A stretch of 57,741 nucleotides of DNA from an uncultured Chloroflexota bacterium (GCA_903864185.1 CAIPEX010000025.1:1-57741); one strand, 5' to 3'. Shown: positions 5,306-26,529, numbered from the stretch's first letter. The notes: a model not told the origin generated them from the letters alone. Numbers and translations are program-made.

Positions 5306-6052
5306 CTACTTGCTGCCAGCAATTAGTGTGAGGAATGCTGTCTCAATTGGGCGCTCACTCCCTGCAGGGGCACGCGCCGCAAAGTCCCGCAGCGCACCAT
5401 CAAACGCGATATTGCCTGCATGAAGTACGGCGACATGCTGATATGCGTTCGTTATTTCTCCTGTGTCATGGGTCGAAACCACAACCGTTCGGTCCGCACC
5501 AATCTTTACCAGTAATTCACGGAACATCGCTCGCTGCTCTGGGTCAAGGCCAGAGGTGGGCTCGTCAAGCAGCAAGACTTCTGCATCGTGAACCAGGGCA
5601 CTGGCAAGACCAACGCGCCGTTGCTGGCCTCCTGAAAGTTCACTTGCAGGCCGGTCAGCTAGATCCTGAAGAGACACGCGAGCTAACGCTTCAGTTGCCC
5701 CGCGCCATGAATCGTCACGACTCATCCCCTTCAGCCAACCAGAATACGCCACCTGCTCTCGCACGGTGAGCCCTGGTGCTGCTCGATACTGCTGCGGCAT
5801 CCATGCCACGCGCGTTCGAAACTGGGTTTGCTGCTCGTGGGAATCCAACTCGTTCAGCGAAACTTTGCCACCCTTTGCCATCAGCGCTGTCGCGCCAATG
5901 GACAAGAGCGTGCTCTTGCCTGCGCCATTGATCCCAAGAAGGGCGGTAACGCCTGTAGGCACGTGCCAAGTTAAGTGTTGCAGGACGGCAAGTTCGCCTT
6001 GGCCTTTGCGGCGGTAGCTGAAGGTGATGTCACGCAGTTGGAGCCCGTTCAT
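5306..6052 (-). CDS. ABC transporter ATP-binding protein
   Basis: GINGAGKST, LSGGQ, LLLDEPT, STH; ATG 6052 with SD GGAGG. Confidence 0.92.
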   Translation of the reverse strand: MNGLQLRDITFSYRRKGQGELAVLQHLTWHVPTGVTALLGINGAGKSTLLSIGATALMAKGGKVSLNELDSHEQQTQFRTRVAWMPQQYRAAPGLTVREQVAYSGWLKGMSRDDSWRGATEALARVSLQDLADRPASELSGGQQRRVGLASALVHDAEVLLLDEPTSGLDPEQRAMFRELLVKIGADRTVVVSTHDTGEITNAYQHVAVLHAGNIAFDGALRDFAARAPAGSERPIETAFLTLIAGSK

Positions 6053-6060
6053 CACTTGCC

Positions 6061-6093
6061 TCCACATATACGAATCAAGTTCGGATATGTGGA
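6061..6093. promoter_or_regulatory. 14-bp inverted repeat overlapping the SD of the ABC ATPase gene
   Basis: TCCACATATACGAA-tcaag-TTCGGATATGTGGA, 1 mismatch. Confidence 0.5.
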
Positions 6094-6108
6094 TCCTAGC
6101 AGGGGGGG

Positions 6109-8463
6109 CTACCTCTCGTCGTTGCGCATGTGGCTTCGCTCTAGCGGGAGCCTTCGCAGTCGCAAGGAGTTGAGCACAACGCTCACACTCGAGAGGCCCA
6201 TCGCTGCAGCAGCGAGTGCGGGGTCAAGACCAATACCAAATGTTGGGAGCAGCGCTCCGGCCGCGAGTGGCACGAGGATGATGTTGTAGCCGAAGGCCCA
6301 GGTGAGATTCTGCTTGATGATGCGCGTTGTCGCACGAGCAAGATCAATGAGCTGCACCACGCCGTGGAGATCCGAGCTTGCGAGTGTGGCGCTTGCGGCC
6401 TCGACGGCAATCTCAGCGCCGCCGCCCATGGCAATGCCAACGCTTGCAGCAGCGAGTGCTAGCGCATCGTTGATGCCATCGCCAACCATCGCAACCGGTC
6501 CACCAACGAGGCGTGAGATCTCTTCGACCGCGTCACCTTTTTCGCGCGGGAGCACGCCGCCGCGCGCGTGCTCGGGAGGGATGCCGATGCGTGCCGCAAT
6601 GGCGGCAACGGTCTCTGCGCGATCTCCCGAGATGATCCATGAGGCAATGCCACGATCGGCGAGCGCGCGTACCGTTGCTGCCGCCTCAGGTCGAACCTCG
6701 TCTGCAAGGGCAATGAGGCCAATCGGCTGTGCGTTCAGCGCAACATAGACAACGGTGTGGCCAGCCGCCGCCTCTTCATCGGCCCAGCGATCGAGCGGTG
6801 CGAGGAGTTCGGCCTGCACGCTGAGTGCCAGAAGGTGCGCGCGCGACCCGACGGCAATCGACGCGCCATCGATGGTGGCAACGACGCCGCCACCGACCAG
6901 GGTACGGCGCGCCGTTGCAGCTGGCCATTCCGCGGCAGCCGCAGTTGCGGCTGCAACGATGGCACGGCCGAGCGGGTGCTCGGAGCCGGCCTCGGCTGCT
7001 GCCGCGGCGATCAGGAGGGCATCGCTGTCGCCGGCAAGGGGCCCGGTTGAGAGGGGTCGCAGCGCAACGATGGCGGGGCGCCCGAGGGTGAGGGTGCCGG
7101 TCTTATCCCAGATGACCGCCTTCAACTTCCCCGCCGTTTCGAGCACGGCGGCATCCCGCACGAGGATTCCACGCTCAGAACCACGACCGATCCCAGCGAT
7201 GACGGCGGTTGGCGTGGCGAGCCCCATCGCGCAGGGGCAGGCGACCACGAGCACGGCGATCGCGCTGGCGACCGCCCGCACGAGGCGCGGCTCGGCGCCG
7301 AAGAGGTACCAGGCGGCAAAGGTGGCGAGGGCGATGAGGAGGATCGTTGGCACGAAGATTGCGGAGATTCGGTCGGCGAGGCGCGCGATCGCGGGCTTCG
7401 ATCCTTGCGCTCGTTCAACGGCGGCGACGATGCGCGCCAGCGCAGTGCTGCTGCCAACCGATACGGCACGCATGATGATTGGTGCATCGAGGAGCAGCGT
7501 GCCGGCAAGGATGCGTGCCCCCGTGTCGCGAAGGACGGGGATCGACTCTCCGCTCATTGCAGATTCATCGAGCGAGGCTCCGCCACGAACGATGATCCCG
7601 TCAACAGGAATTCTGTCACCAGGTCGAACGAGGATGAGATCTCCCGCAATAACGCGCGCGAGTTCGACGCGCTCGGTTCGCGTTGCATCAGGGTGCGGAA
7701 CGAGTTCCACGATAGATGGACGCAAGTTCAAGAGTGCGCGCACTGCACCAGTTGTTGCCTCGCGCGCGCGTGACTCCATCCATCGCCCGAGTGAAACGAA
7801 ACCGATGATCAGTGCGGCGGCATCCCATGTTGCATGTGCTGGAACGCCGATCTGCATCAGTTCGCTATGAAAGATCGTGAGCACAACAGACCAGCCCCAC
7901 GCGGTGGTGGTGCCGAGACTCACGAGCGTCTCCATCGTGAGGCTCCCATGGCGAAGTGCGCGCAGCGCCCGCGAATGGAACGGCCAACCAACGTAGAACT
8001 GCACGAGGGTTGCAGGAAGGATCAACCAACGATTGACCTGATCCATGCTGATGAAGAGCCAGTCTTGCAGCATGAGGAACATGGCAATGAATCCAAAGGC
8101 AGTGGCGATGATGCCACCGCGCAACATTGCGCGCGAGGCACGCGCGCGACCAGTGGCAAGCTCTTCGCTCAACGCTGCGCGCGCGGCATCAACATCGGCG
8201 TCTGGCTCACGGCCGGCGAGTGCGAGCGCGGCCGCCGGCACCTCATAGCCGGAGGCGGCGATTGCGGCGGCGAGTTCTGCAACGCCCGTCTGGTCGGGGA
8301 GATAGCGAATCGTCGCGCTCTCGGTCGCAAGGTTGACCTGCGCCTCTGCGACGCCGTCAGCTGCCTTGAGGAAACGCTCGACCCGGTTGACGCACGAGGC
8401 GCACGTCATCCCCACGATCGGCAGGGTGACCTCGGCGCCGGGAGTTGGCTCGTGTGTCTGCAT
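6109..8463 (-). CDS. copA: Cu(I)-exporting P1B-type ATPase
   Basis: GMTCASC metal-binding domain, CPC, DKTGT, SEHP, GDGIND, YN and MxxS membrane motifs. Confidence 0.93.
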   Translation of the reverse strand: MQTHEPTPGAEVTLPIVGMTCASCVNRVERFLKAADGVAEAQVNLATESATIRYLPDQTGVAELAAAIAASGYEVPAAALALAGREPDADVDAARAALSEELATGRARASRAMLRGGIIATAFGFIAMFLMLQDWLFISMDQVNRWLILPATLVQFYVGWPFHSRALRALRHGSLTMETLVSLGTTTAWGWSVVLTIFHSELMQIGVPAHATWDAAALIIGFVSLGRWMESRAREATTGAVRALLNLRPSIVELVPHPDATRTERVELARVIAGDLILVRPGDRIPVDGIIVRGGASLDESAMSGESIPVLRDTGARILAGTLLLDAPIIMRAVSVGSSTALARIVAAVERAQGSKPAIARLADRISAIFVPTILLIALATFAAWYLFGAEPRLVRAVASAIAVLVVACPCAMGLATPTAVIAGIGRGSERGILVRDAAVLETAGKLKAVIWDKTGTLTLGRPAIVALRPLSTGPLAGDSDALLIAAAAAEAGSEHPLGRAIVAAATAAAAEWPAATARRTLVGGGVVATIDGASIAVGSRAHLLALSVQAELLAPLDRWADEEAAAGHTVVYVALNAQPIGLIALADEVRPEAAATVRALADRGIASWIISGDRAETVAAIAARIGIPPEHARGGVLPREKGDAVEEISRLVGGPVAMVGDGINDALALAAASVGIAMGGGAEIAVEAASATLASSDLHGVVQLIDLARATTRIIKQNLTWAFGYNIILVPLAAGALLPTFGIGLDPALAAAAMGLSSVSVVLNSLRLRRLPLERSHMRNDER

Positions 8464-10587: not shown

Positions 10588-10994
10588 TCGGCCTCCGGCA
10601 CTCGCGAGCCCGCTACCGGCGGCACCGGCAGGTCGAGCATCTCTGCGAGGATCGCATGTCCGCGCTCAAAGAGGGCGCGGTAGGGCATGGCACGCGCCGC
10701 ACCTGCAGCGATGAGCGCGGCGCGGGTGGCTGGATCGTCGTGCTGGACAAGCGCAAGCACGCGCCAGCCTGCCGCCGTAGCGCGCGCCACGGCATCGGCT
10801 GGGGCATAGGAGCGGCTGGTCGCGTCGATGGCGACGAGATCATGCGGAGCTGCGGTCGACCCGGCAAGCGCGGCGGTGAGCCCCTCGAGGGTGCTGTGCC
10901 GTTCAACGAGGGCGCCGAGGGTGCGCCCTTGACCTTCAATCCGCGTTGCCCAGATTAGGTCGTCGGCGAGTACGAAGAGGCGCGGTGCGCTCAC
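10584..10994 (-). CDS. Atypical stand-alone receiver-like protein
   Basis: VLADDL...DLVAID...AGA CheY-like pattern; conserved Lys not evident. Confidence 0.5.
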   Translation of the reverse strand: MSAPRLFVLADDLIWATRIEGQGRTLGALVERHSTLEGLTAALAGSTAAPHDLVAIDATSRSYAPADAVARATAAGWRVLALVQHDDPATRAALIAAGAARAMPYRALFERGHAILAEMLDLPVPPVAGSRVPEAE

Positions 10995-12022
10995 TCTACG
11001 GTCCAGGTCTCCCCGGAGGCGAGGAGCTTCTGGAGATCAACGGGGCCCTTCGCGGCACGCGCCGCCTTCGCACCATCGATCTGCTCCACAAGAAGTTGGT
11101 CGTGCGTTGGGCGCGGCACGCGACGGAAGACGCCCACAGGGACGGGGAAGTCGGGCCACCACATGCGGCTCAAGATCTGCGTCCGCGTTGCATCTGGGTC
11201 GGTCTCGTCGTGAACCCAGAGGTCGGCAACGCTCACGCCGTTCTCGCCGATCGTCACGACCTCAGGTCGCAGGCCGTTGAGTCGGATCCCCTTGTTCTTC
11301 TCGGCGCCGAAGATCATCGGCTCGCCGTGCTTGAGCACCAGCATGCGATCCTCCTTCACCGACTTGTCGGTGAAGTCGCGCCAGGCGCCGTCGTTGAAGA
11401 TGTTGCAGTTCTGCAGTACCTCGAGAAAGGCGGCGCCGGAGTGCTCGCCCGCGCGATGCATCATCTCTTGCAGATGCTCAGAGTGCGTGTCGACCGATCG
11501 CGCGATGAAGCTCGCCTCTGCCGCAGCAACCAGGTTGAGCGGAATGATTGGCGTCTCGATGGTGCCGAGCGGCGTCGACTTCGTCTTCTTGCCGATCGGC
11601 GAGGTTGGCGAGGCCTGACCCTTCGTCAGACCGTAGATGCGGTTGTTGAACATGATCATCTTCATGTCGACGTTGCGACGCATCGCGTGAATCAAGTGGT
11701 TCCCGCCAATCGACAGCGCGTCGCCGTCGCCCGTGATCACCCAGACCATCAGGTCGGGGCGCGCCGCCTTGAGCCCAGTAGCAATCGTTGCCGCGCGGCC
11801 GTGAATGGTGTGGAAGCCGAAGGTGTTCATGTAGTACGGGAGTCGACCCGAGCAGCCGATCCCGGAGATGAAGACGATCTTCTCCTTCGCGACGCCGAAG
11901 TCGGGCATCGTCTTCTGGGTCTGCGCCAAGATGGAATAGTCGCCGCAGCCTGGGCACCAGCGCACGTCCTGGTCGGATTCGAAGTCCTTCTTTGTCAGTA
12001 CGGGGAGCTCACTCTGCGTCAC
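10991..12022 (-). CDS. korB: 2-oxoacid:ferredoxin oxidoreductase beta subunit
   Basis: WCPGCGD, SGIGCS, GDGD TPP motif, NNRIYGLTKGQ. Confidence 0.92.
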   Translation of the reverse strand: MTQSELPVLTKKDFESDQDVRWCPGCGDYSILAQTQKTMPDFGVAKEKIVFISGIGCSGRLPYYMNTFGFHTIHGRAATIATGLKAARPDLMVWVITGDGDALSIGGNHLIHAMRRNVDMKMIMFNNRIYGLTKGQASPTSPIGKKTKSTPLGTIETPIIPLNLVAAAEASFIARSVDTHSEHLQEMMHRAGEHSGAAFLEVLQNCNIFNDGAWRDFTDKSVKEDRMLVLKHGEPMIFGAEKNKGIRLNGLRPEVVTIGENGVSVADLWVHDETDPDATRTQILSRMWWPDFPVPVGVFRRVPRPTHDQLLVEQIDGAKAARAAKGPVDLQKLLASGETWTVE

Positions 12023-13896
12023 TTCGCTACCTCCACACTCTCGCCGAGGAGCGACTCGGCCTTCGCTTCGATCTCACCAATCTGGAACGGCTTCCCGCGC
12101 ACGAGGTTGAAGCCGATGGCGTCAACGAGGTACTTCGAGCGAATGAGCATGCGCAGCTGCCCGGCGTTGAGCTCAGGCATCAGCACCTTATCGAAGCGCT
12201 GGAGGATCTCACCCAGGTCGCCTGGGAGTGGGTTGATGTGCCGGATATGCGCATGGCCGACCTTGCGCCCGCGTGCGCGCAGCCGCTCGACCGCCGAGCG
12301 AATCGAGCCATAGGTTGATCCCCAGCCGAGGATCAAGAGCTCGCCGCGATCATCGCCGTAGATCTCGGTCGCCGGGATATCACGCACGATGCGTGCAACC
12401 TTCTCGGCGCGCAGCAGGTTCATGCGGTGATGGTTGTCGGGGTCGTAGGAGACGGTGCCGAGCTCGTCGAGTTTCTCAAGCCCGCCGATGCGGTGCTCGA
12501 GCCCAGGCGTTCCTGGCACGGCCCATGGTCGCGCCAGCGTCTCTGGGTCGCGCTTATACGGACGGAATCCTGGACCCGTTGCGGCCGGTGCATTCTCGAC
12601 CTTGATCGATGGGAGATCGGCAACCTGCGGAATGAGCCACGGCTCTGCACCGGTCGCGAGGAAGGCGTCAGACAAATAGACGACCGGTGTCATGTGCTTC
12701 AGCGCAATGCGCCACGCCTCGATCGCCATCGTGAAGCACTCGGCAGGCGTTGCGGGTGCAACAACCGGAATCGGCGAGTCGGAGTTGCGGCCGAACATGC
12801 TCATCAGCAGGTCGCCCTGCTCGGTCTTCGTTGGCATCCCTGTCGACGGTCCAGCGCGCTGCACGTCGACAACGACGAGGGGGAGCTCGACCATCACGGC
12901 GAGTCCGAGCATCTCTGCCTTGAGCGCCATCCCTGGGCCTGACGTCGTCGTCATGCCGAGTGCGCCGCCGTATGCGGCGCCGACTGCGGCGCCGATCGCC
13001 GCGATCTCATCTTCAGACTGCACCGTCTTGATGCCGAGGTGCTTATATGACGAGAGCTGATGCAAGATGTCGGAGGCCGGCGTGATTGGGTAGCTCGCCA
13101 AGAAGAGGTCGCGCTCCGCGAGGCGTGAGGCGGTGACGAACCCGAGGGCGGTCGCCTCGTTCCCCGTAATGTTGCGATACATGCCCGGTGGTAGGTGCGC
13201 AGGCGCAACGCGATAGTGCGTGTGGAACATCTCCGTCGTCTCGCCGAACGCGTAGCCGGCATGGAGTGCGCGGCGATTCGCTTCGGCGACTGCATCTTTG
13301 CCTGCAAACTTTTCGGCGATCCACTTCTCGGTTGCGGCCATCGACCGCTCGTAGAGCCAGAACATGACGCCGAGGGCGAAGAAGTTTTTGGTGAGCTCGA
13401 TCTGCTTGCTCGTCATGCCGAGCCCCTCACACGCATTGGCAACCATCGTCGACATAGGGATCTCGTAGAGGTTGTAGCCCTGGAGTGAACGGTCCTTCAG
13501 CGGGTCGCTCTCATAGCCAGCCTTGCGCAGATTGATCTCGTTGAACGCGTCGGTGTTCACGATGATCCCGCCGCCGGGAACGAGGTCGGCAATGTTCACC
13601 TTGAGTGCAGCGGGGTTCATCGCCACGAGGACATCGGGGCGGTCGCCTGGGGTGTGGATGTCGCCACTAGAGAAGCTGATCTGGAAGCCAGAGACGCCTG
13701 GCAACGAGCCTGCTGGCGCGCGAATCTCCGCGGGGAAGTCGGGCAGGGTTGAGACGTCGTTGCCGAAGAGGGCGGTGGTGGCGGTGAACTGCGAGCCGGT
13801 CAGCTGCATCCCGTCGCCTGAGTCGCCAGCAAACCGAATCGTCACGCGATCCAGCTCGGTAATCGACTGCTGTTCTCCGCTCTTGTTCGTGGTCAC
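12019..13896 (-). CDS. korA: 2-oxoacid:ferredoxin oxidoreductase alpha subunit (gamma-alpha fusion)
   Basis: AGDSGDGMQ, PAEIR, YPITP, EDEIAA, QRAGPSTG. Confidence 0.92.
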   Translation of the reverse strand: MTTNKSGEQQSITELDRVTIRFAGDSGDGMQLTGSQFTATTALFGNDVSTLPDFPAEIRAPAGSLPGVSGFQISFSSGDIHTPGDRPDVLVAMNPAALKVNIADLVPGGGIIVNTDAFNEINLRKAGYESDPLKDRSLQGYNLYEIPMSTMVANACEGLGMTSKQIELTKNFFALGVMFWLYERSMAATEKWIAEKFAGKDAVAEANRRALHAGYAFGETTEMFHTHYRVAPAHLPPGMYRNITGNEATALGFVTASRLAERDLFLASYPITPASDILHQLSSYKHLGIKTVQSEDEIAAIGAAVGAAYGGALGMTTTSGPGMALKAEMLGLAVMVELPLVVVDVQRAGPSTGMPTKTEQGDLLMSMFGRNSDSPIPVVAPATPAECFTMAIEAWRIALKHMTPVVYLSDAFLATGAEPWLIPQVADLPSIKVENAPAATGPGFRPYKRDPETLARPWAVPGTPGLEHRIGGLEKLDELGTVSYDPDNHHRMNLLRAEKVARIVRDIPATEIYGDDRGELLILGWGSTYGSIRSAVERLRARGRKVGHAHIRHINPLPGDLGEILQRFDKVLMPELNAGQLRMLIRSKYLVDAIGFNLVRGKPFQIGEIEAKAESLLGESVEVAK

Positions 13897-16252: not shown

Positions 16253-16492
16253 CTACATCCCCGACGGGGTAAAGGCAGGGTCAAGGTAGCGGCTCGGCTC
16301 ATCGCCGAAGTCGAGCATGCAGCCACGCCCGCAGAACCAGAAACGCTCGACCCCTGGCTCGGCAGGGTCAACAGCGCCGACGTGCCTGCCTGGTGCCGCC
16401 GCGTTGACCAGGTCTGCCACGAGCACCGTGCTCGTGAGCGCCGCCGGCTCAACCGCAACCTCCATGCCACACACTGGATCGATTGCCATCAT
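16253..16492 (-). CDS. YHS-domain protein
   Basis: DPVCGMEV ... FCGRGC..F...P.RY. Confidence 0.8.
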   Translation of the reverse strand: MMAIDPVCGMEVAVEPAALTSTVLVADLVNAAAPGRHVGAVDPAEPGVERFWFCGRGCMLDFGDEPSRYLDPAFTPSGM

Positions 16493-17424
16493 GCCTCCTC
16501 CTCTGCTCGCTTCGCGCTCAGTGCCGCCTCGCGCCGATGAATCTCGGCCAAGGCGGGTGCAAGCGCCGCGTCGTCGCGGCCTGCCGTACGTTCAGCATCG
16601 CGCATCCACGCCGCGAGCACAACAAAGACCGCGATGAGGAAGAGGATGTCGCCGATCATCCACATCAGCGCGCCGGCAAGCTGCTGGTCTTCGAGTGGTG
16701 ACGGACCCCAGGTTCGACCGAGCGTTTCGTAGTGCGGGTAAAGGACGCGCGGTGCCCACATGATCGCGACGCCGAGGAAGCTGTTCTGCGGCATCTGCGT
16801 AATGAGATACCCGAGTGCAGCACCGCGCGAGAGCTTATGGCGCATCGGGTCGACCGAGAAGACGGGCGCCCAAAAGATCAGCGCGCAGGTGAGATAGAGC
16901 AGGTGCTCGGCATCGTGAACGAGCGGATCTTCAAGGGCGAGGTCGAAGAGCGATGAGAGATGCGTTGCCCACATCACAGCAACGAGGAGGACCCAACCCG
17001 TGATCGGATGCGTGACCGCGCCAACGGCACGACTCTGCAGCACGCGCAGGATGCGAGCACGCCGCGCCGGCGTCGCAAGTCGAAGGAGCAGCGTAATTGG
17101 GCCGGCCTGCAAGAGGAGGATCGGCACGGGGAAGAGCAAGATCAGGTGCTGCACCATGTGGACGCTAAAGAGTGCGGTGTCATACCGCTCGACAACCGAC
17201 TGCAAGGCGATGAGGGTGAGGGCGAGCGCGGCGATCAGTGCGACGCTACGACGGCGCGGGACTGGATTCCCTGGATGTGCGGCGTTCACACGTCGAACGG
17301 CGAGCCACCAGAGCACGAGGGTTGCGAGGACCGCCAGAGTGACGAGCGGAGGCGAGGTCCAGTAGCCGAGGGCGGCAATGCTCGGCTCGGGCGGCAAGGG
17401 TCCGTGGGCGGGAATCTGGCTCAC
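16489..17424 (-). CDS. ctaG: Cytochrome c oxidase assembly factor, caa3-type CtaG
   Basis: LFSVHMVQHL, WATH, HDAEH, DQQLAGALMW. Confidence 0.85.
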   Translation of the reverse strand: MSQIPAHGPLPPEPSIAALGYWTSPPLVTLAVLATLVLWWLAVRRVNAAHPGNPVPRRRSVALIAALALTLIALQSVVERYDTALFSVHMVQHLILLFPVPILLLQAGPITLLLRLATPARRARILRVLQSRAVGAVTHPITGWVLLVAVMWATHLSSLFDLALEDPLVHDAEHLLYLTCALIFWAPVFSVDPMRHKLSRGAALGYLITQMPQNSFLGVAIMWAPRVLYPHYETLGRTWGPSPLEDQQLAGALMWMIGDILFLIAVFVVLAAWMRDAERTAGRDDAALAPALAEIHRREAALSAKRAEEEA

Positions 17425-17656: not shown

Positions 17657-18757
17657 ATGGACCTCCTTCGCGCGCTCCTTGAGTGGGTGGTCTCCCTGAT
17701 CGGACCCCTCGTCGCTCCCGACTGGGCAGCCCTGATCCGCCTCATCCCCATCGGCGTCCTCCTCCTCGTTGCCAGCTTCTACGGCTGGGTCCTCCTGCGC
17801 TATCGCCGCGCGGGGACGCGCCGCGTCGGTCACCCGCCACGTGCTCCGCGCGCGCCAGCAGGCATCCATCTCCCTGGTCCAAGCCTGGCGCCGTTCCTCA
17901 TCTCTGCTGCTGCGGCGGCGCTCTTCTTCTCAGCGGCGCTTGGTGGCATCGCCCTCCTCGTTGCGGCACTCTTCCTCGTCTTCGCGTTGATCGCCTGGGG
18001 CCGCGAGGCGGTGCATGAGTACGACGCACTCGGCGGCGTCCAGAGCCAGGCGCTCATCGCTGCTGACGCAGCGAACTCGACCGAACTACTGACTCCTGCC
18101 GGGCCACCAGATGGTGTGCACCTGCCGCCACCATCGCTCCTCCCCTTCCTCGTCAGCCTCGGCGCCGCAGTAATGCTCTTTGGTGCAGCGATCGGTCTCT
18201 CGTTCGTCTTGCTTGGCGCGCTCATGACCGTCCTCGCGCTCATCGGCTGGCTTATCGACTCTGGGCGGGAATATCGTGCAGTTGCCGAAGCAGATGCAAC
18301 GGGCCATCTGGTCTCACCAGCGCCAAAGCGCGCGCCACAGTTCGTCATCGCACTGATGTCGCTCCTCTTCGTTGTGGTTGGCGGCGCGCAGGCAGGGTTC
18401 TTCGCAAGCAGCGATGTGAGCCCGAGTCCAAGCCCATCGGGCAGCACGTGCGTTGCCGACGCGACAGGCGTTCTCACCGTGTGTGCCGAGCTCGTCGCCT
18501 TCTCGGTGCCAACCATCGAGATCGCCGCGGGAGCACCAACAAAGATTCGCTTCGTTAACTACGACGCTGGCGTGCCGCACAACATTGCCATCTACGAGGG
18601 GAGCGCCGATGCCAGTGGCACGCAGATCTTCAACGGCGAGATCTTTGCGGGCGTTGATGAGCGGACCTACGACATCCCTGCGCTCAATGCTGGAGCAACG
18701 TACGCATTCCTTTGCCTTGTGCACCCGAACATGGTCGGCACGGTGGTCGTGCAGTGA
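17657..18757 (+). CDS. Membrane protein with duplicated CtaF/Cox-like hairpins fused to a C-terminal cupredoxin
   Basis: Two HLP.PS..PFL...W...EY repeats, PS linker, PHN ... CLVHPNM type-1 Cu ligands. Confidence 0.75.
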   Translation: MDLLRALLEWVVSLIGPLVAPDWAALIRLIPIGVLLLVASFYGWVLLRYRRAGTRRVGHPPRAPRAPAGIHLPGPSLAPFLISAAAAALFFSAALGGIALLVAALFLVFALIAWGREAVHEYDALGGVQSQALIAADAANSTELLTPAGPPDGVHLPPPSLLPFLVSLGAAVMLFGAAIGLSFVLLGALMTVLALIGWLIDSGREYRAVAEADATGHLVSPAPKRAPQFVIALMSLLFVVVGGAQAGFFASSDVSPSPSPSGSTCVADATGVLTVCAELVAFSVPTIEIAAGAPTKIRFVNYDAGVPHNIAIYEGSADASGTQIFNGEIFAGVDERTYDIPALNAGATYAFLCLVHPNMVGTVVVQ

Positions 18758-20200: not shown

Positions 20201-21703
20201 CTACGGATCCTTTCGTCCAAGTTTCGCGCGCAGCCAGGCGGCGGCACGCTCACGCTGGGCATAGACGACGGCCGCAGCAAGGAGGAGGACGAAGTTCAGC
20301 GTCCATGCACCTGCTGCCGACAGATAGCCAAGCTGCTGGCCAACTTCACCCTGAATCGCAAGGCCCGGCACGGTGAGCCCGAAGAGTCCGAGTCGGAATA
20401 CCGGTGCCTTGGGTGATGTGCCTGCAATGAGTGTGCTGTTTGCAGTCGCGAGCGCGCTGGGGGTTGTGCCACCAATGAGTACGGCGTGTCCGCCAAGCAC
20501 GATGCCGTGTGCGCCGATGCGCGCGTTGTCGACGGGCAGATCATCTTGTGCGATCGTCGCCCACTCGCCAGTGAGTCCAGCGGCTGTTGGTGCGATCCAG
20601 TAGGTGCTCGTGACAGCCGAACCATCTGCTGCAACTCCACCAGCAACGTAGAGCGTGCCGTTCGCCGACCAGAGCGCTGCGCCCACGCGCGGCGAAGGGA
20701 GGAGCGCACCTTCTGCCGTCCATCGATAGATCTCGCCAATCGGTGTCTCGCCTTGCGCAGGATCTGGGGTTGCGGCTGGTGCGCCGTGGCCAGTTGCTGG
20801 ACTGTGTGCAACGGCAAGATCGCCGCGAAGTACCACGTTTGTCGCAACTGCTGCCTCTGCCTCACTGCCGCCCCACACATAGAGTGCATCGCCGACAAGT
20901 GCGGCCGCTGCGTCGGCACGTGCGGCTGGGAGTTCCATCAGTGGGACCCATGCCGCAAGGTCACCGCTCGACTGCAGGGCTGCCTTCCAGACGCTCGTTT
21001 GCGCAACGCCATTGGCGTCTCGGCCGCCGATAAGGATGAGTCCGTCACTGACCGCAACGAGTGCTGCGCCAGAGCGCGCGCTCGGGAGATCCAGCATGGT
21101 CGAAGGTGTCCAGGTGGCAATGAGGCCCGTGGTTGCATCTGGCGTGCCGACATAGACACTCGTCGTTGCCTTCACGTCTAGTGTCGCTCCGCCAACGACA
21201 TACGCCTTCCCGGCGAAGAAGGCTGCGGCAACATCGGTTCGCGGTGCCGGAAGTGGTGCACCGGCGCTCCATGTGCTGAGTCCGTCGGGGCCAACTTCGG
21301 CAACGGCGGTTCCCGTCGTGCCGCCACCGCCGCCCAGGTAGTAGAGATGCGCACCAGCTTGGACAAGCCCGCCGCCGACTCCGCCACCAGGGAGATCCGT
21401 GGTCGTGCCGCTCTTCCACGGGAGGAGCGCGCCGTTTGGCGCAGGGCACGGGAGCCCCTCATTCTCTGCTGGGCAGATGTTCACGAGCGAGAGACCGTTG
21501 AGGCCGAGCTCAACGGTTGGCGAGACGGTGAGGTAGTAGGCGCGGTCCGGGATGTAGCCAAGCATCATGATGATGACAAGCGTCCAGAGGATTGCGCGTA
21601 CGCCAGCCCATCCCCAGCCCGATGCATCGAGCAGGCCGAAGAGCACACGCTTCGGTGGCACGTTGCCACTCTCGAGCGCGCGTGGGGCGTTCGTTGTATT
21701 CAT
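20201..21703 (-). CDS. Membrane-anchored Kelch beta-propeller protein
   Basis: Repeated LYxxGG...W....LP.PR Kelch motifs between N- and C-terminal TM helices. Confidence 0.8.
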   Translation of the reverse strand: MNTTNAPRALESGNVPPKRVLFGLLDASGWGWAGVRAILWTLVIIMMLGYIPDRAYYLTVSPTVELGLNGLSLVNICPAENEGLPCPAPNGALLPWKSGTTTDLPGGGVGGGLVQAGAHLYYLGGGGGTTGTAVAEVGPDGLSTWSAGAPLPAPRTDVAAAFFAGKAYVVGGATLDVKATTSVYVGTPDATTGLIATWTPSTMLDLPSARSGAALVAVSDGLILIGGRDANGVAQTSVWKAALQSSGDLAAWVPLMELPAARADAAAALVGDALYVWGGSEAEAAVATNVVLRGDLAVAHSPATGHGAPAATPDPAQGETPIGEIYRWTAEGALLPSPRVGAALWSANGTLYVAGGVAADGSAVTSTYWIAPTAAGLTGEWATIAQDDLPVDNARIGAHGIVLGGHAVLIGGTTPSALATANSTLIAGTSPKAPVFRLGLFGLTVPGLAIQGEVGQQLGYLSAAGAWTLNFVLLLAAAVVYAQRERAAAWLRAKLGRKDP

Positions 21704-22707
21704 CACTTCGCCGTCAACGTTCCGACCATGTTCGGATGCACCGTGCAGACGAAGGCGTAGGTGCCCTTTGCGAGCGCAGGGATCGTGTAGGTCTGCTGCG
21801 CAATACCAGGGAAGATCGCCCCCCGGAACACCTCTGCACCAGTGGCGCTCCCTGTGTGAATCGCGACGTTATGCGGAATGCCCAGATCCTGGTTGTCAAA
21901 CGCGATCGCAAACGGAACGCCAGCGGTCACCGTGAGGCTCATCGTGGTGTACTGCACGCCCTGCGCAACGATGCTGTAGGTCTTGCCGGGTGCAACAGAG
22001 GGGCCGCCCGTTGGGGCTGGCGTTGGCGATGCAGCAAATGCATCGCTCCAGCAATCAGGAACTGGCGTTGCATCGGCTGCTGGAACATATGCTGCGTCGC
22101 GCCAGCCCGTTACCTGAACCCTCGCTCCCGTTGCAGGATCGGTCACGGTGATCGTGTCAGTGTTCGTTGAGCGGATCCAGGCAATCAACTCTTCAATCTC
22201 GCGATAGTTGAGCGGTCCACCATTCGTGTCAGACCAGACACCCATGAGTGAATTTGCATTGCCGCACACGTACCGGCCGCCGACGGTCAGCACATTCTTG
22301 AGGTATGCCGGGGTTAGATGCGAGAGCAGCTTCCCTTGATCGTTTAGCACTGGCCCAATGCCACCCTGCCCCTGTGCGCCGTGACAGCGCGCGCAGTTTG
22401 CCTGGAAGAGGTTGTAGCCACGTGTCACCGTTTCGAGGTACTGCTCCTCTTTCGCGGCATCAAGGCGCGCAGAGCCAGTGACACCTGGGAGTCCCTGGTC
22501 GTAGAAGGTATACACGATGACAAAAAGCGTGACGATGGCGATGCCGAGCAGTGCTGCGGCGCGCGAGGAGCCGCTCTGCTTGACAATCTTTGCCGCTCGC
22601 TCAGCATCGAGCCCGTGCGTATGAATTGGTGCAGGGCTTGAGAGGCGTGGCACTGGCGTGCTCGCCTTCTCTACTGGAACAGGGAGCTGCTTCTGCTCGT
22701 CGCTCAT
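21703..22707 (-). CDS. Membrane-anchored monoheme cytochrome c fused to a cupredoxin
   Basis: TM helix, CARCH, candidate Met ligand (SLMGVW), PT linker, PHN ... CTVHPNM. Confidence 0.85.
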   Translation of the reverse strand: MSDEQKQLPVPVEKASTPVPRLSSPAPIHTHGLDAERAAKIVKQSGSSRAAALLGIAIVTLFVIVYTFYDQGLPGVTGSARLDAAKEEQYLETVTRGYNLFQANCARCHGAQGQGGIGPVLNDQGKLLSHLTPAYLKNVLTVGGRYVCGNANSLMGVWSDTNGGPLNYREIEELIAWIRSTNTDTITVTDPATGARVQVTGWRDAAYVPAADATPVPDCWSDAFAASPTPAPTGGPSVAPGKTYSIVAQGVQYTTMSLTVTAGVPFAIAFDNQDLGIPHNVAIHTGSATGAEVFRGAIFPGIAQQTYTIPALAKGTYAFVCTVHPNMVGTLTAK

Positions 22708-23375
22708 TAGATGCACCCCGTTGCGGCGCGTGGCGCTTCGATCCCTGGCTGCCCGAGCGCTACGGGCATGCCGCCAAGGTTGATCTTCCCCGTGTCGAGG
22801 GTGAGCACGCCGTCGGCGTCAACGCTCAAGGAGAAGCGGTCCATGCCGCGCGGCGCTGGGCCGAGTCCGTCTGCCTTCGTGCCGAGTCGGTCGTAGCGAC
22901 TGCCATGGCAGGCGCACTCAAGCCAGTAGGTCTTGATGCAGGGGTTTGGCTTGCAGCCAAGATGTGGGCAGCGTTGATAGAGGGCGCGAACGTTGAGCGC
23001 ACTCCCCTCGCCTGTTGGGTCGTCACCGGCGATGAACTCCTTCCGGCTCGGATCAACGAGCATGATGAAGGCGCGGGCGTCTTGTACATACGCGGGGTAG
23101 CCCTGGTCAATTGGAAGTCCCACGTTGGCGTTGATCAGTGACTGCAGCGTGCCGACGCGCACCTTGCCACCAAATCCCCCTTCGAGATTTGGCCAGAGGA
23201 AGCCGAGTGTGCCCGCAGTGACCTCGAGGAGCCAGAGACCGAAACCGGCGCCAATCGTGGTGCGCAAGAGTCGACGGCGCGAGATGCCCTGAACCTCTTC
23301 ATGGCGCAGCGCCTTGATGGTCTCGCCGGTCAAGGCCTGTGGCTTGTCGGCTGGCTCAACTTGATAGTGGCTCAT
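22707..23375 (-). CDS. Rieske [2Fe-2S] protein
   Basis: Tat-like SRRRLL plus TM helix, CPHLGC, CACHGSRY. Confidence 0.92.
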   Translation of the reverse strand: MSHYQVEPADKPQALTGETIKALRHEEVQGISRRRLLRTTIGAGFGLWLLEVTAGTLGFLWPNLEGGFGGKVRVGTLQSLINANVGLPIDQGYPAYVQDARAFIMLVDPSRKEFIAGDDPTGEGSALNVRALYQRCPHLGCKPNPCIKTYWLECACHGSRYDRLGTKADGLGPAPRGMDRFSLSVDADGVLTLDTGKINLGGMPVALGQPGIEAPRAATGCI

Positions 23376-23959
23376 AGGCTGAAGAAGAATCCGGTTGACC
23401 AGGGGAGGATGAACGAGTAGCCCGGCCCGCGGAAGAAGATTCCGATGAAGGTGACGGTGAGGCCGAGTGCCCAAAGGAGCGAGAAGAGCATCACCTCAAG
23501 CTTCCGATCCGACGGGCGCGTGCTGCGAATGTTGCGACGGTCAAGATACGGAATGAGCGCAGAGCCAACGAGCACGCCGATCGGCGTGAGCGCACCGGCA
23601 ACGGTCGGGTGGAAATAGGCGAGGAGCTCTTGGAGTCCGAGGAAATACCACGGCGCCTTTGCAACGGCGGGGGTGACGTTCGGGTTCGCAAGCTCTTCGA
23701 GTGGTGCATTGATGAAGAGTCCGAGCATGAGCAAGAAGATGCTCATGGCCACGGCGGCCAAGAACTCAATCGTTAGGAGGTGGGGCCAGGTCATCACCGT
23801 GTCGTCTGGCTCTTTTTGTACGCGCACGACGGCGTCTTGCTTTACCAGCGCCAAGAGGCGGTAGGGGCGCGCTGCCATCGGCACGCGCTGCTTATCAATC
23901 TCCGTCTGGCGCGACGGATCGACTGGCAGCGAGCTTGCGGGGCGCTGCTCGTCACTCAC
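23372..23959 (-). CDS. Cytochrome b6 subunit IV-like protein (PetD/QcrC-like)
   Basis: WPHLL..E, ANP..TP...KAPWYF, LIPYLDR; 3 TM segments. Confidence 0.85.
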   Translation of the reverse strand: MSDEQRPASSLPVDPSRQTEIDKQRVPMAARPYRLLALVKQDAVVRVQKEPDDTVMTWPHLLTIEFLAAVAMSIFLLMLGLFINAPLEELANPNVTPAVAKAPWYFLGLQELLAYFHPTVAGALTPIGVLVGSALIPYLDRRNIRSTRPSDRKLEVMLFSLLWALGLTVTFIGIFFRGPGYSFILPWSTGFFFSL

Positions 23960-23965
23960 GGCAGA

Positions 23966-24694
23966 TCACAGCGGTCCGCTGATTCCGCCGTCCTTGCGGA
24001 TCCGCCAGAAGTGGACCGCGAGGAAGACGGCCGCGAGGAGCGGCAGCACCATCACATGGAGCACATAGAAGCGAAGGAGCGTGTTCTGTCCCACCTCGAG
24101 GCCGCCGAGGAGGAGGAGCTTCGATGGCGTATTGAAGAGCGGCGCATAGCCGGCCATGTTCGATCCGATCGTGATCGCCCAGTAGGCGATCTGATCCCAT
24201 GGGAGCAGGTAGCCGGTGAAGCTGAGCATCATCGTCAAGAAGAGGAGGAGGACGCCGACCACCCAGTTGAATTCGCGTGGCGGCTTGTATGCGCCGTGAT
24301 AGAAGACGCGCATCATGTGAAGGAAGACGAAGAACACCATGAGGTGCGCGCCCCAGCGATGGATGTTGCGCGTGATCTGCCCGAATGGGACGAGCGTCTG
24401 GATGCGAATGATGTCGCTATACGCCTGCGTTGCAGAGGGGGCGTAGAAGAACATCAGGTAGACGCCGGTCACGGTAAGGACGAGGAAGAGGAAGAAGGAG
24501 AGCCCGCCGAGACAGAAGGTGTAGGCGAACTTCACGGCGTGCTGGCGTACACGCACTGGGTGAAGGTGGAGGAAGACGTTGTTCATCACCGCATAGGCAC
24601 GGCTCCGCTCGTCGCTCGGGTAGGCATTGCGGAAAATGGAGCGCCAAGCTGACGACCGTCGAACTGCCTGATCGACTCGCGCTAGAAGGCTCAT
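23966..24694 (-). CDS. Cytochrome b6-type split cytochrome b (PetB/QcrB-like)
   Basis: [27 protein letters not shown], helix-D His pair separated by 14 residues. Confidence 0.92.
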
Positions 24695-26529
24695 TGCGCT
24701 CCTCCCCCTGTGCCGGCAACCCCTGCGAGCTGCCCATCTCGGTATGACTCCTTATAGAGGCGACCATCCGAGCTGATCTCCTGCATCTCGAACCTCTCCA
24801 TCGTAATGGCGTCGAACGGACAGCGCTTGACGCAGAGGGCGCAGCGGATGCAGCGCTCCTCGTCGAGGATCATGGCCGCGCCGTTCTCCCAGCCATACGC
24901 CTCGCTGAGCACGGGGAGCTGCCCCTCGGCCTTCAGCTGGTTGATATCCACCATATGGATGACCCCCTCGGGGCAGACATCGGCGCAGGCGCCGCACAAG
25001 ACGCAGCGCATCGGATCGAACCAGATGTTGTAGTTGCACATGAGGCAGCGGGTGCTCTCGGCGACCGCCTGCTGCGCCCCGTAACCAAGCTCCACCTGGG
25101 TGGTGAAGTTCACCGTTGGGTCGGCAGAGGGGAGGCGCGCTGCAAGCGGGAGCACGGGGATGTGCTGGCGCGGGATGGTGTCGTAGAACTCAGGCATGTC
25201 GTGGCGCCACGAACTCGTGACGCGCACATTCGCATCGACCGTCACCGTTGCCTGGCCCGCAAGGTAGCGATCGATTGCATAGGCGCACTTCTTCGCGTGA
25301 CCGGCCGCCTCGATCATCGTCGCTGGCCCAGTGACAAAATCGCCACACGCCCACACGCCACGGATGTTGGTGGCGTAGGTTGCCGGGTCAACCTTCACGC
25401 GACCGCGTGCAACTTCGAAGCTGCTCTGCACGGGAAGGAAGCCGAGGTCGGCCGCCTGCGAAACCGCCGGGATCACCGTGTCAGCAGGGATGATGAATTC
25501 TGATCCTTCAATCGGCACGGGGCTACGTCGGCCGGAGGCGTCGGGTTCGCCGAGGCGATTCTTAATCATGCGCACCCCGGTGATGTGGCCGTTCTCACCG
25601 ACCAGCTCGAGTGGCGAGACAAGGAAGTCCATGCGCACGCCCTCGCGCTCGGTCTCGCCCAACTCCTCTTCGTCGACAACGAGTTCGGCACGGGTGCGGC
25701 GATATGCAATCGTGACGCGCTCGGCACCGTGTCGGAGCGAGGTGCGCGAGCAGTCCATCGCCGTGTAGCCACCACCGATGACGACGACATCCTTACCCAC
25801 GCTGATCGGCTTTCCGAGGTTTGCATCTTTCATGAAATCAACGCCGTAGACGAGGCCGTCGAGGTCGGCGCCAGGGATGTCGAGGGCGACCGCGTTCATC
25901 GCACCAGCACAGATCGCAATCGCGTCGTAGTCGGCCTGCACCTGCTCAAAGCTCAGCTCGCGGCCGATCTCGGTGTTGTAGACAAACTTCACGCCGAGCC
26001 GCTCAATCAGCCGCACGTCGGTCTCGATCGCCTCGCGAGGGAGGCGGAATGCCGGCACGCCAATGAGCATCGTGCCGCCGCCGTACGGGAGGCTGTCATA
26101 CACGGTGACCTGGTAGCCCTTTACTGCAAGCTCGCGCGCCACAGAGAGGCCGGCGGGGCCGGCGCCGATCACGGCAACGCGCTCGGCGCGCGGCGAGATC
26201 GCTGGAGCGACATCGGGGATCCCCGATGCTGCGTGCCACTCGACGAGGAAGCGCTTCATCGCCCGGATCGCGAGTGGCCGATCAATATCGCCACGGCGGC
26301 AGGCCCGCTCGCACGGTGCCGAGCAGACGTAGGAGCACATTGCAGCGATGGGGTTTGGCTCGCGGGAGAGGATGTAGCCCTCTTCGAAGCGTCCTTCGGC
26401 GGCGAGGTTGAGGTAGCCGCGGCAGTTGGTGCCGACGGGACAGGCCTCCTGGCACTCAATGTTGCACTGCAACCATGAGGCGTCTACCGGCTGGACGAGG
26501 AAGTCCTGGTTCGCGAGAGTCACATTCAA
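24691..26529 (-). CDS. NAD(P)H-dependent flavo-iron-sulfur oxidoreductase (GltD/NfnB/DsrL-like) with C-terminal 2[4Fe-4S] domain
   Basis: [65 protein letters not shown]. Confidence 0.9.

Follow-up and report, generated by a model that had tools for sequence, protein, structure and literature searches.

A Rieske/cytochrome b6 operon headed by an NADP(H)-type iron-sulfur flavoprotein in the apparent aerobe Candidatus Limnocylindrus

The 57,741-nucleotide stretch of DNA analysed here (CAIPEX010000025.1; the window) is one entire contig (C25) of a 72-contig genome of 1.12 Mb that is 92% complete and that the source names of near-identical proteins place in Candidatus Limnocylindrus, class Limnocylindria, Chloroflexota. 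On its minus strand, from 26529 to 20201, six co-directional open reading frames encode in order a flavoprotein, cytochrome b6, subunit IV, a Rieske protein, a monohaem cytochrome c-cupredoxin and a membrane Kelch protein, as identified by Pfam and NCBIfam. The b6 of this operon is the only cytochrome b in the genome. We propose that the operon encodes the cell's only complex-III-type enzyme, a b6-type complex of the 'APWY clade' in which a Kuste4570-type NADP(H) flavoprotein would serve as an extra subunit on the n-side, forming a reversible wire whose selected function would be NADP+ reduction. We hold this reading tentatively, at somewhat less than an even likelihood. The gene content, homology, synteny, joint loss and uniqueness in the genome on which it builds are read directly from the genomes described below.

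Anammox complexes of this kind have been explained as a special NAD(P)H-making device of an anaerobic chemolithoautotroph. The same flavoprotein-bearing complex belongs to the class-wide core set of aerobic Limnocylindria and is the only complex III of a streamlined 1.1-Mb genome, so its function cannot be specific to anammox. With a simple output of one haem c and one copper, in a lineage abundant in lakes, the long-open role of an NAD(P) module on a bc-type complex becomes more tractable.

The operon and the respiratory chain around it

The six genes are closely packed. An ATGA overlap, read from the sequence, joins the flavoprotein and b6 genes, which appear to be translationally coupled through it; b6 and subunit IV are separated by 6 nt, subunit IV and Rieske share a second ATGA overlap, and the Rieske/cytochrome c and cytochrome c/Kelch junctions overlap by 10 and 4 nt. 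An earlier note, made from this sequence alone, had described six such genes joined by overlaps or a 6-bp gap, and every open reading frame, domain and junction was found as described, together with the YRR motif of the flavoprotein (residues 276-278). Its Rieske gene is likewise present, with a different start: translation most likely begins at the Met at 23375, where homologues also begin, and not at the TTG at 23474. A peroxiredoxin gene lies upstream of the operon and a tRNA-Lys gene downstream, and promoter and terminator scans at the operon performed no better than on shuffled sequence. Contigs from RNA libraries of four freshwater studies, 90-99% alike, span parts of all six genes, and the flavoprotein/b6 junction is bridged by contigs in two runs (X1 and X3). 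With word shares of 0.05-0.14 and contigs only, from which neither strand, start nor expression level can be read and in which DNA carry-over is possible, these give a weak hint of expression.

The flavoprotein consists of an N-terminal two-cluster domain (Fer4_20, residues 20-102), two Rossmann folds (Pyr_redox_2, 117-411), a linker (CxxC at 495/498) and, at the C-terminus, a 2x[4Fe-4S] ferredoxin domain whose two 4Fe-4S motifs lie at 502-586. Of its 22 cysteines, 17 are invariant across 14 cytochrome-b-linked homologues. Its best NCBIfam match, PRK12771 'NAD(P)-binding protein', reaches 429 bits and stays under the cut-off of 516. Against an identity as GltD stand scores of 200.8 for TIGR01317 (cut-off 447.7) and 268 for TIGR01318 (cut-off 483), and the 92%-complete genome offers no GltB partner beyond a marginal 20-bit PF01645 match. 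Nor does NfnB fit: the protein falls outside a 20-row NfnB/GltD-like clade, and no NfnA was found in the same genome, where the only DHODB_Fe-S_bind protein is PyrK, beside PyrD. As for DsrL, which we take to share the architecture of the flavoprotein, the genome likewise yielded no DsrA match. The earlier statement that the window holds no gltB, nfnA or dsr partner is correct, and no such partner was found in the rest of the 92%-complete genome. In three Limnocylindria-type loci outside the order (L025-L027), the fold for flavin adenine dinucleotide (FAD) and NADP is followed in the flavoprotein by some 45 inserted residues (alignment columns 485-530), which are missing from the window's own order.

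Cytochrome b6 has four haem-ligand histidines, a CxGG cysteine (Cys61) at the haem cn site, a C-terminal Arg/Lys motif and a 58-residue N-terminal extension with a histidine at position 43. The b6 chains in the PDB align only from residue 59; Cys61 matches their Cys35, the haem cn attachment site, and the N-terminal 58 residues have no counterpart in these solved chains. In Kuste4571, His43 has been named as a ligand of a predicted interfacial haem b (PMC12954380). The residue is invariant in 13/13 linked cytochromes b and absent from the PDB b6 chains and from all four other unlinked cytochrome b paralogues of Limnocylindrales. As a marker of flavoprotein linkage it is ruled out by an unlinked Desulfobacterales cytochrome b that has His43 at the same spacing. 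The b6 scores 297.6 bits, above the cut-off of 290, with the NCBIfam model ExtP (NF040969, selenite/tellurite reduction operon cytochrome b). This automatic name would mislead, and none of the six genes encodes the porin or multihaem cytochrome of an ext-type context.

In subunit IV, the APWY motif (A102-P103-W104-Y105) is invariant in 9/9 aligned homologues, which places the complex in the 'APWY clade'. The Rieske protein has CPHLGC and CACHGS as its cluster boxes, together with a Ser/Tyr pair of the kind typically seen when the potential of a Rieske protein is high. In Limnocylindria its C-terminal extension ends in a conserved cysteine, absent from the aligned Brocadia, Nitrospinota and Acidobacteriota homologues. 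The cytochrome c-cupredoxin, presumed to be the high-potential output subunit, follows the Rieske gene in the Limnocylindria loci L023-L027.

Neither NrfD/ACIII nor cytochrome bd was found in the 92%-complete genome, which has one COX1, in a coxII-coxI-coxIII-cupredoxin row in which CoxII keeps its CuA ligands. A single cytochrome b and one CuA-type oxidase leave the complex as the one recognisable path between quinol and oxidase in this genome, and the earlier picture of an apparent aerobe with copper-based output is borne out by the oxidase and its cupredoxins. A membrane cupredoxin in the window (Table 1) shares 47% identity in its copper domain with the operon's cytochrome c-cupredoxin and is 42% identical to the cupredoxin after coxIII on contig C6; the cupredoxin domains of the three are 39-47% identical to one another. 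The membrane cupredoxin is likely a copper carrier between complex and oxidase. The oxidase row itself is flanked by a 418-amino-acid protein with two cupredoxin domains, one sulfocyanin-like and one plastocyanin-like, and by a 284-amino-acid cupredoxin (L124:931-2187, minus strand; 5456-6310, plus strand). At one position of the CoxII CuA motif, where Glu is usual, an Ala is found.

The genome's only paralogue of the flavoprotein is an 846-amino-acid fusion on contig C57 (L113:4847-7387, plus strand), in which a 2Fe-2S/NuoG-type N-terminus precedes a GltD-like module with YRR and a 2x[4Fe-4S] domain. It lies in a complex I row of the order nuoD-nuoH-nuoE-nuoF-[fusion]-nuoJ...nuoL-nuoM. The NuoE/NuoF/fusion triad recurs in Ktedonobacter, in another Limnocylindria genome and in four Firmicutes loci. 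Among PDB matches the triad resembles a Stn-type transhydrogenase (8oh5), an entry that we take to be the bifurcating transhydrogenase StnABC and whose title says formate dehydrogenase-O. Elsewhere in the window, two genes on the minus strand (10991-13896), 7 kb from the operon, encode a 2-oxoacid:ferredoxin oxidoreductase (POR/POR_N/PFOR_II and a TPP-binding subunit) in this apparent aerobe.

Table 1. Genes of the operon and the membrane cupredoxin, in window coordinates
Feature	Position	Strand	Basis
NADP(H)/FAD iron-sulfur flavoprotein, 612 amino acids, GltD/NfnB-like	24691..26529	-	Pfam, NCBIfam, motifs
Cytochrome b6, 242 amino acids	23966..24694	-	PF00033, 155 bits
Subunit IV, 195 amino acids, Qo motif APWY	23372..23959	-	PF00032
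Rieske [2Fe-2S] protein, 222 amino acids from revised start, twin-arginine signal	22707..23375	-	PF00355, alignment, motifs
Membrane-anchored monohaem cytochrome c and blue-copper (cupredoxin) fusion	21703..22716	-	Pfam, CxxCH at residue 108, Cu-ligand motifs
Kelch beta-propeller protein, 501 amino acids, hydrophobic segments at both ends	20201..21706	-	Kelch Pfam matches
Membrane cupredoxin	17657..18757	+	Pfam; beside oxidase assembly gene ctaG (16489-17424)

Conservation in Limnocylindria and linkage in other phyla

A close sample covered 24 genomes of the organism's own genus and 16 of a sister family, f2. A flavoprotein orthologue of 82-94% identity, or high-identity pieces of one, is present in 23/24 of the former, the exception (G019) having the paralogue alone, and in 10/16 of the latter, in all ten of which b6 follows directly. 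The remaining six f2 genomes, from the genera g5 and g6, have only a flavoprotein paralogue of 35-41% identity, and this b6 and the Kelch gene are absent from them as well. The Kelch gene is found in all 24 genus genomes and in 9/16 of the f2 genomes, 2.5-3 kb beyond b6 on the same strand, and in 0/6 genomes of the operon-less genera g5 and g6. Within the order the gene is co-inherited with the operon.

The same pairing extends across the class. In an even draw of 121 Limnocylindria genomes at least 80% complete, four of them flagged as unpublished (G090, G110, G119 and G123), the flavoprotein orthologue was found in 107, representing 32/34 genera (E up to 1e-120), and b6 in 108 (E up to 1e-60). 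Comparison of the coordinate tables by eye put b6 directly downstream of the flavoprotein, sharing its contig and strand, in 103 of these 107 genomes, two of which (G027 and G052) were counted from separate searches. Among the other four, b6 is on a different contig in three (G068, G076 and G087) and none was found in G110. Three genomes (G086, G102 and G128) have b6 with no match to the flavoprotein, and eleven have neither. Between families, identity is 82-84% for the flavoprotein and 84-89% for b6, about 65-68% for Rieske, 43% for the cytochrome c-cupredoxin and 40-47% for Kelch, so that the flavoprotein and b6 are conserved to about the same degree. In the sister family, some of the larger genomes have a second, solitary b6 of 82-83% identity (G079:C3:1388975-1389697, G082:C3:35509-36234 and G109:C1:382503-383225), and no gene for subunit IV, Rieske or the flavoprotein lies within 8 kb of it in the two regions fetched. 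Two of these copies (G079 and G082) proved uninformative as natural controls, being recent duplicates of 82-83% identity that keep all motifs.

Outside the class, loci were searched with an alignment of eight full-length homologues as query and the Rossmann motif as search pattern, giving at least 80 loci, a sample and not a census. Cytochrome b6 and subunit IV stand beside the flavoprotein gene in 13 of 80 loci among the matches listed. Where the match reaches the ferredoxin domain, in 27 listed loci, 13 are linked to cytochrome b and 14 have no cytochrome b neighbour. Five of the 13 linked loci, among the matches listed, are labelled Limnocylindria or Chloroflexia and three Acidobacteriota; Nitrospinota, Zixibacteria, Eisenbacteria, Nitrospirota and Planctomycetaceae contribute one each. 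A quick maximum-likelihood tree of 79 flavoprotein rows, built without near-identical rows of the genus and without rows that were short or incomplete, gathers all 16 cytochrome-b-linked rows, Brocadia included, into one group of 18 (SH-aLRT 87, unstarred) with rows from seven phyla. The remaining two rows of the group are unlinked, on long branches. Proteins of 430-455 amino acids resembling NfnB and GltD fall into a clade of their own (20 rows, support 99), and the paralogue from the operon's genome has yet another place on the tree. A synteny survey and a phylogeny against NfnB and GltD had been put forward in the earlier note as checks on the association; the first places the flavoprotein beside cytochrome b both across the class and in other phyla, and the second sets the linked proteins apart.

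Within the linked group, the proteins from Limnocylindria, Nitrospinota and Brocadia retain YRR, and seven others have Leu-Glu-x in its place. Five of these seven pair with fused cytochromes b, and all but the Nitrospirota one (L046) are without the haem cn cysteine. The pattern hints at NADPH-type and NADH-type subgroups.

Direction of electron flow

We propose a model in which quinol would be oxidised at Qo. The first electron would reach oxygen by way of the high-potential Rieske cluster, the monohaem cytochrome c-cupredoxin handing it on the periplasmic side, through copper proteins, to the CuA-type haem-copper oxidase. The second would cross the membrane via haems bP and bN and then either reduce quinone at haem cn/Qi, as in an ordinary Q cycle, or leave through four Fe-S clusters to FAD and NADP+. 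The docking of the flavoprotein, the cofactor wiring, the direction of flow and the energetics of this scheme we infer. If the quinone is of the menaquinone type and the Rieske potential near +300 mV, the second electron at Qo would have a very low potential. By our estimate it would be about isoenergetic with NADP+ after crossing, so that the wire between flavoprotein and haems would be poised near equilibrium and reversible. We lean toward NADP+ reduction as the selected function, which would give low-potential electrons an outlet under a reduced quinone pool. The same function has been proposed for the anammox complexes (PMC12954380). There, AlphaFold3 models and Rieske potentials of +303 and +335 mV of the homologues trace the same proposed path.

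Given the paralogous YRR-bearing GltD modules at the complex I row and at the sole Rieske/b6 complex, it is tempting to speculate on an 'external Q cycle', in which NADPH would carry the low-potential electron from Qo out of the complex and back into the chain at complex I, with membrane potential and the redox state of the quinone pool deciding the direction. This extension is distinctly doubtful. If true, an external Q cycle would operate in an abundant aerobic freshwater bacterium.

Several points weigh against the outlet model as a whole. By our estimate, reducing NADP+ against a membrane potential of normal size would be about isoenergetic, and with a working Qi site electrons would prefer quinone; an obligatory NADP+ branch on the sole complex III would return half of the electrons. 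Searches of the whole genome found neither MenB (TIGR01929) nor MqnA/D (PF02621), and a MenA-like prenyltransferase (C9:12248-12859) falls below the cut-off, which makes menaquinone-based energetics an assumption. PntB and G6PD are present in the genome, so the cell does not depend on the flavoprotein for NADPH. This type of cytochrome b also exists without the flavoprotein, as in the solitary b6 of G079, G082 and G109 and in Geobacter ExtOPQ (PMC5877670), and His43 is not specific to flavoprotein-linked genes, as the Desulfobacterales case shows. A structure prediction of two b6, two subunit IV (residues 21-195) and the flavoprotein (residues 447-612), run with alignments, scored 0.02 and 0.10, where the mark to reach was 0.32; this outcome speaks neither against binding nor in its favour. 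As for the quinone, an auxotrophy of Limnocylindrus is conceivable.

The same assembly could also run the other way. The flavoprotein would then oxidise NADPH, and electrons entering at haem cn/bN would reduce quinone at Qi, giving a built-in NADPH:quinone reductase analogous to FNR on the chloroplast b6f complex, a coupling cited in PMC5600118. Although rather unlikely in itself, this reading ranks a close second to NADP+ reduction. Flow from NADPH to quinone would be downhill and need no transmembrane charge transfer. A working Qi site is to be expected, since the complex is the only link from quinol to oxidase, and both the haem cn cysteine and the C-terminal Arg/Lys motif of b6 are kept. 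A paralogous YRR module also lies in the complex I row, where forward flow runs from NAD(P)H to quinone. However, complex I would conserve far more energy than such an inlet, and the NADPH-oxidising direction is considered unlikely for the anammox homologues by the authors of PMC12954380. If the quinone is of low potential, the Ser/Tyr pair of Rieske also suits the outlet instead.

It is improbable, in our view, that the flavoprotein is a soluble NADPH-dependent Fe-S oxidoreductase, acting on ferredoxin or another acceptor and co-transcribed with the respiratory genes without binding to their products. The 14 of 27 listed loci in which homologues of the same architecture have no cytochrome b neighbour would fit such an enzyme, as would the 2-oxoacid:ferredoxin oxidoreductase encoded in the window. 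Yet the ATGA coupling to b6, the adjacency in 103/107 class genomes with joint loss, and the linkage in seven phyla with the linked proteins grouped on the tree all argue against this reading, and according to PMC12954380 all subunits of the Kuste4569-4574 complex have been seen to co-migrate in experiment. Least probable of all is electron bifurcation at an NfnB-like FAD, sending NADPH electrons downhill to membrane haems or quinone and uphill to ferredoxin as a Fix/Etf-like source of low-potential ferredoxin in an aerobe: the closest solved relatives, the NfnB chains 4ylf_B and 5jca_L and, in the role we take it to have, 8oh5_C, are bifurcating enzymes, the Fe-S clusters form separate N- and C-terminal sets and a ferredoxin-dependent oxidoreductase is encoded nearby, but the operon has no ferredoxin gene, and a single linear wire made up of all four clusters, as in the anammox models (PMC12954380), is just as conceivable.

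Comparison with known complexes

A Rieske/cytochrome b complex that bears a flavoprotein is already known in print for anammox bacteria and for 'subfamily G' (Dibrova et al. 2013/2017): short cytochromes b co-occur with large NAD(P)-binding Fe-S oxidoreductases in anammox and 'many other cases' (PMC5600118). With this co-occurrence in print there and in PMC12954380, the earlier note's label of the operon as a top candidate system was too strong. The Nitrospina genome paper (PMC3578206) notes the shared b6-type operon and not the flavoprotein. In the Limnocylindria literature, the main text of PMC13212565 is without 'complex III' and has 'cytochrome' once; the supplements of PMC4122944, PMC5600118 and PMC13212565 may list the genes. 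What is new is the aerobic variant with haem-copper output and a Kelch protein. To this we add that the streamlined genome of this aerobe has no other cytochrome b, along with the counts across the class, the loss of flavoprotein, b6 and Kelch together, the APWY assignment and the paralogous module in the complex I row.

The nearest likeness is to anammox. Of two b6 clusters in a Brocadia genome, one consists of Rieske, a flavoprotein of 586 amino acids, b6 and subunit IV, matching the published order of Kuste4569-4572 with the flavoprotein at the position of Kuste4570. Its flavoprotein is 40% identical to that of the operon over residues 15-579, a homology that supports the link to anammox NAD(P) oxidoreductases drawn earlier, and its b6 is 50% identical. 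The order flavoprotein-b6-subunit IV is the same in both. The anammox complexes (Kuenenia Kuste4569-4574 and Kustd1480-1485; PMC12954380) share with that of Limnocylindrus the split b6 with CxGG cysteine and His43, subunit IV, the Rieske Ser/Tyr pair and a homologous full-length flavoprotein. Regarding the pair, the Kuste4569-like Brocadia gene also has it in box II, and the Kustd1480-like gene has Phe there, as published. The output sides differ. Anammox complexes have hexa- and octahaem cytochromes and an HAO-like protein, and the Brocadia locus has genes with 6 and 8 CxxCH; the Limnocylindrus operon has one CxxCH with a cupredoxin and a Kelch protein, with nothing multihaem or HAO-like among its six genes. 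Unlike the anammox hosts, Limnocylindrus has a genome of the aerobic heterotroph type, with a CuA oxidase and a single cytochrome b.

The solved flavoproteins of the NfnB, GltD and StnC type (PDB 4ylf_B, 5jca_L, 2vdc_G, 8oh5_C and 9bov_A) share the N-terminal two-cluster domain, the FAD and NADPH folds and YRR. The operon's flavoprotein differs from them in scoring under every NCBIfam cut-off, in its separate tree group, in its extra ferredoxin domain and in the partners that were not found in the genome.

Chloroplast and cyanobacterial b6f shares the b6 core (E 3.6e-52 to spinach b6), the haem cn cysteine and the C-terminal motif, and the report of FNR as a bound b6f subunit, cited in PMC5600118, supplies the idea of an NADP-linked flavoenzyme on the n-side. 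By contrast, none of the six operon genes encodes a cytochrome f, b6 is 58 residues longer at its N-terminus, and the flavoprotein is of the GltD/NfnB type with four predicted Fe-S clusters, unrelated to plant-type FNR.

In a broader context, the complex belongs with the 'APWY clade' that Kao and Hunte defined in 2014 among cytochrome bc complexes (PMC4122944) and with 'subfamily G', groupings that include Geobacter ExtO/ExtP/ExtQ. The APWY motif is shared, and the operon's b6 exceeds the ExtP cut-off, whereas the Geobacter ext cluster has multihaem cytochromes and no flavoprotein (PMC5877670). The clade has been described as uncharacterised and proposed to work in reverse, while the Limnocylindrus complex is the only forward route to the oxidase. 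The finding also speaks against APWY-type complexes running solely in reverse.

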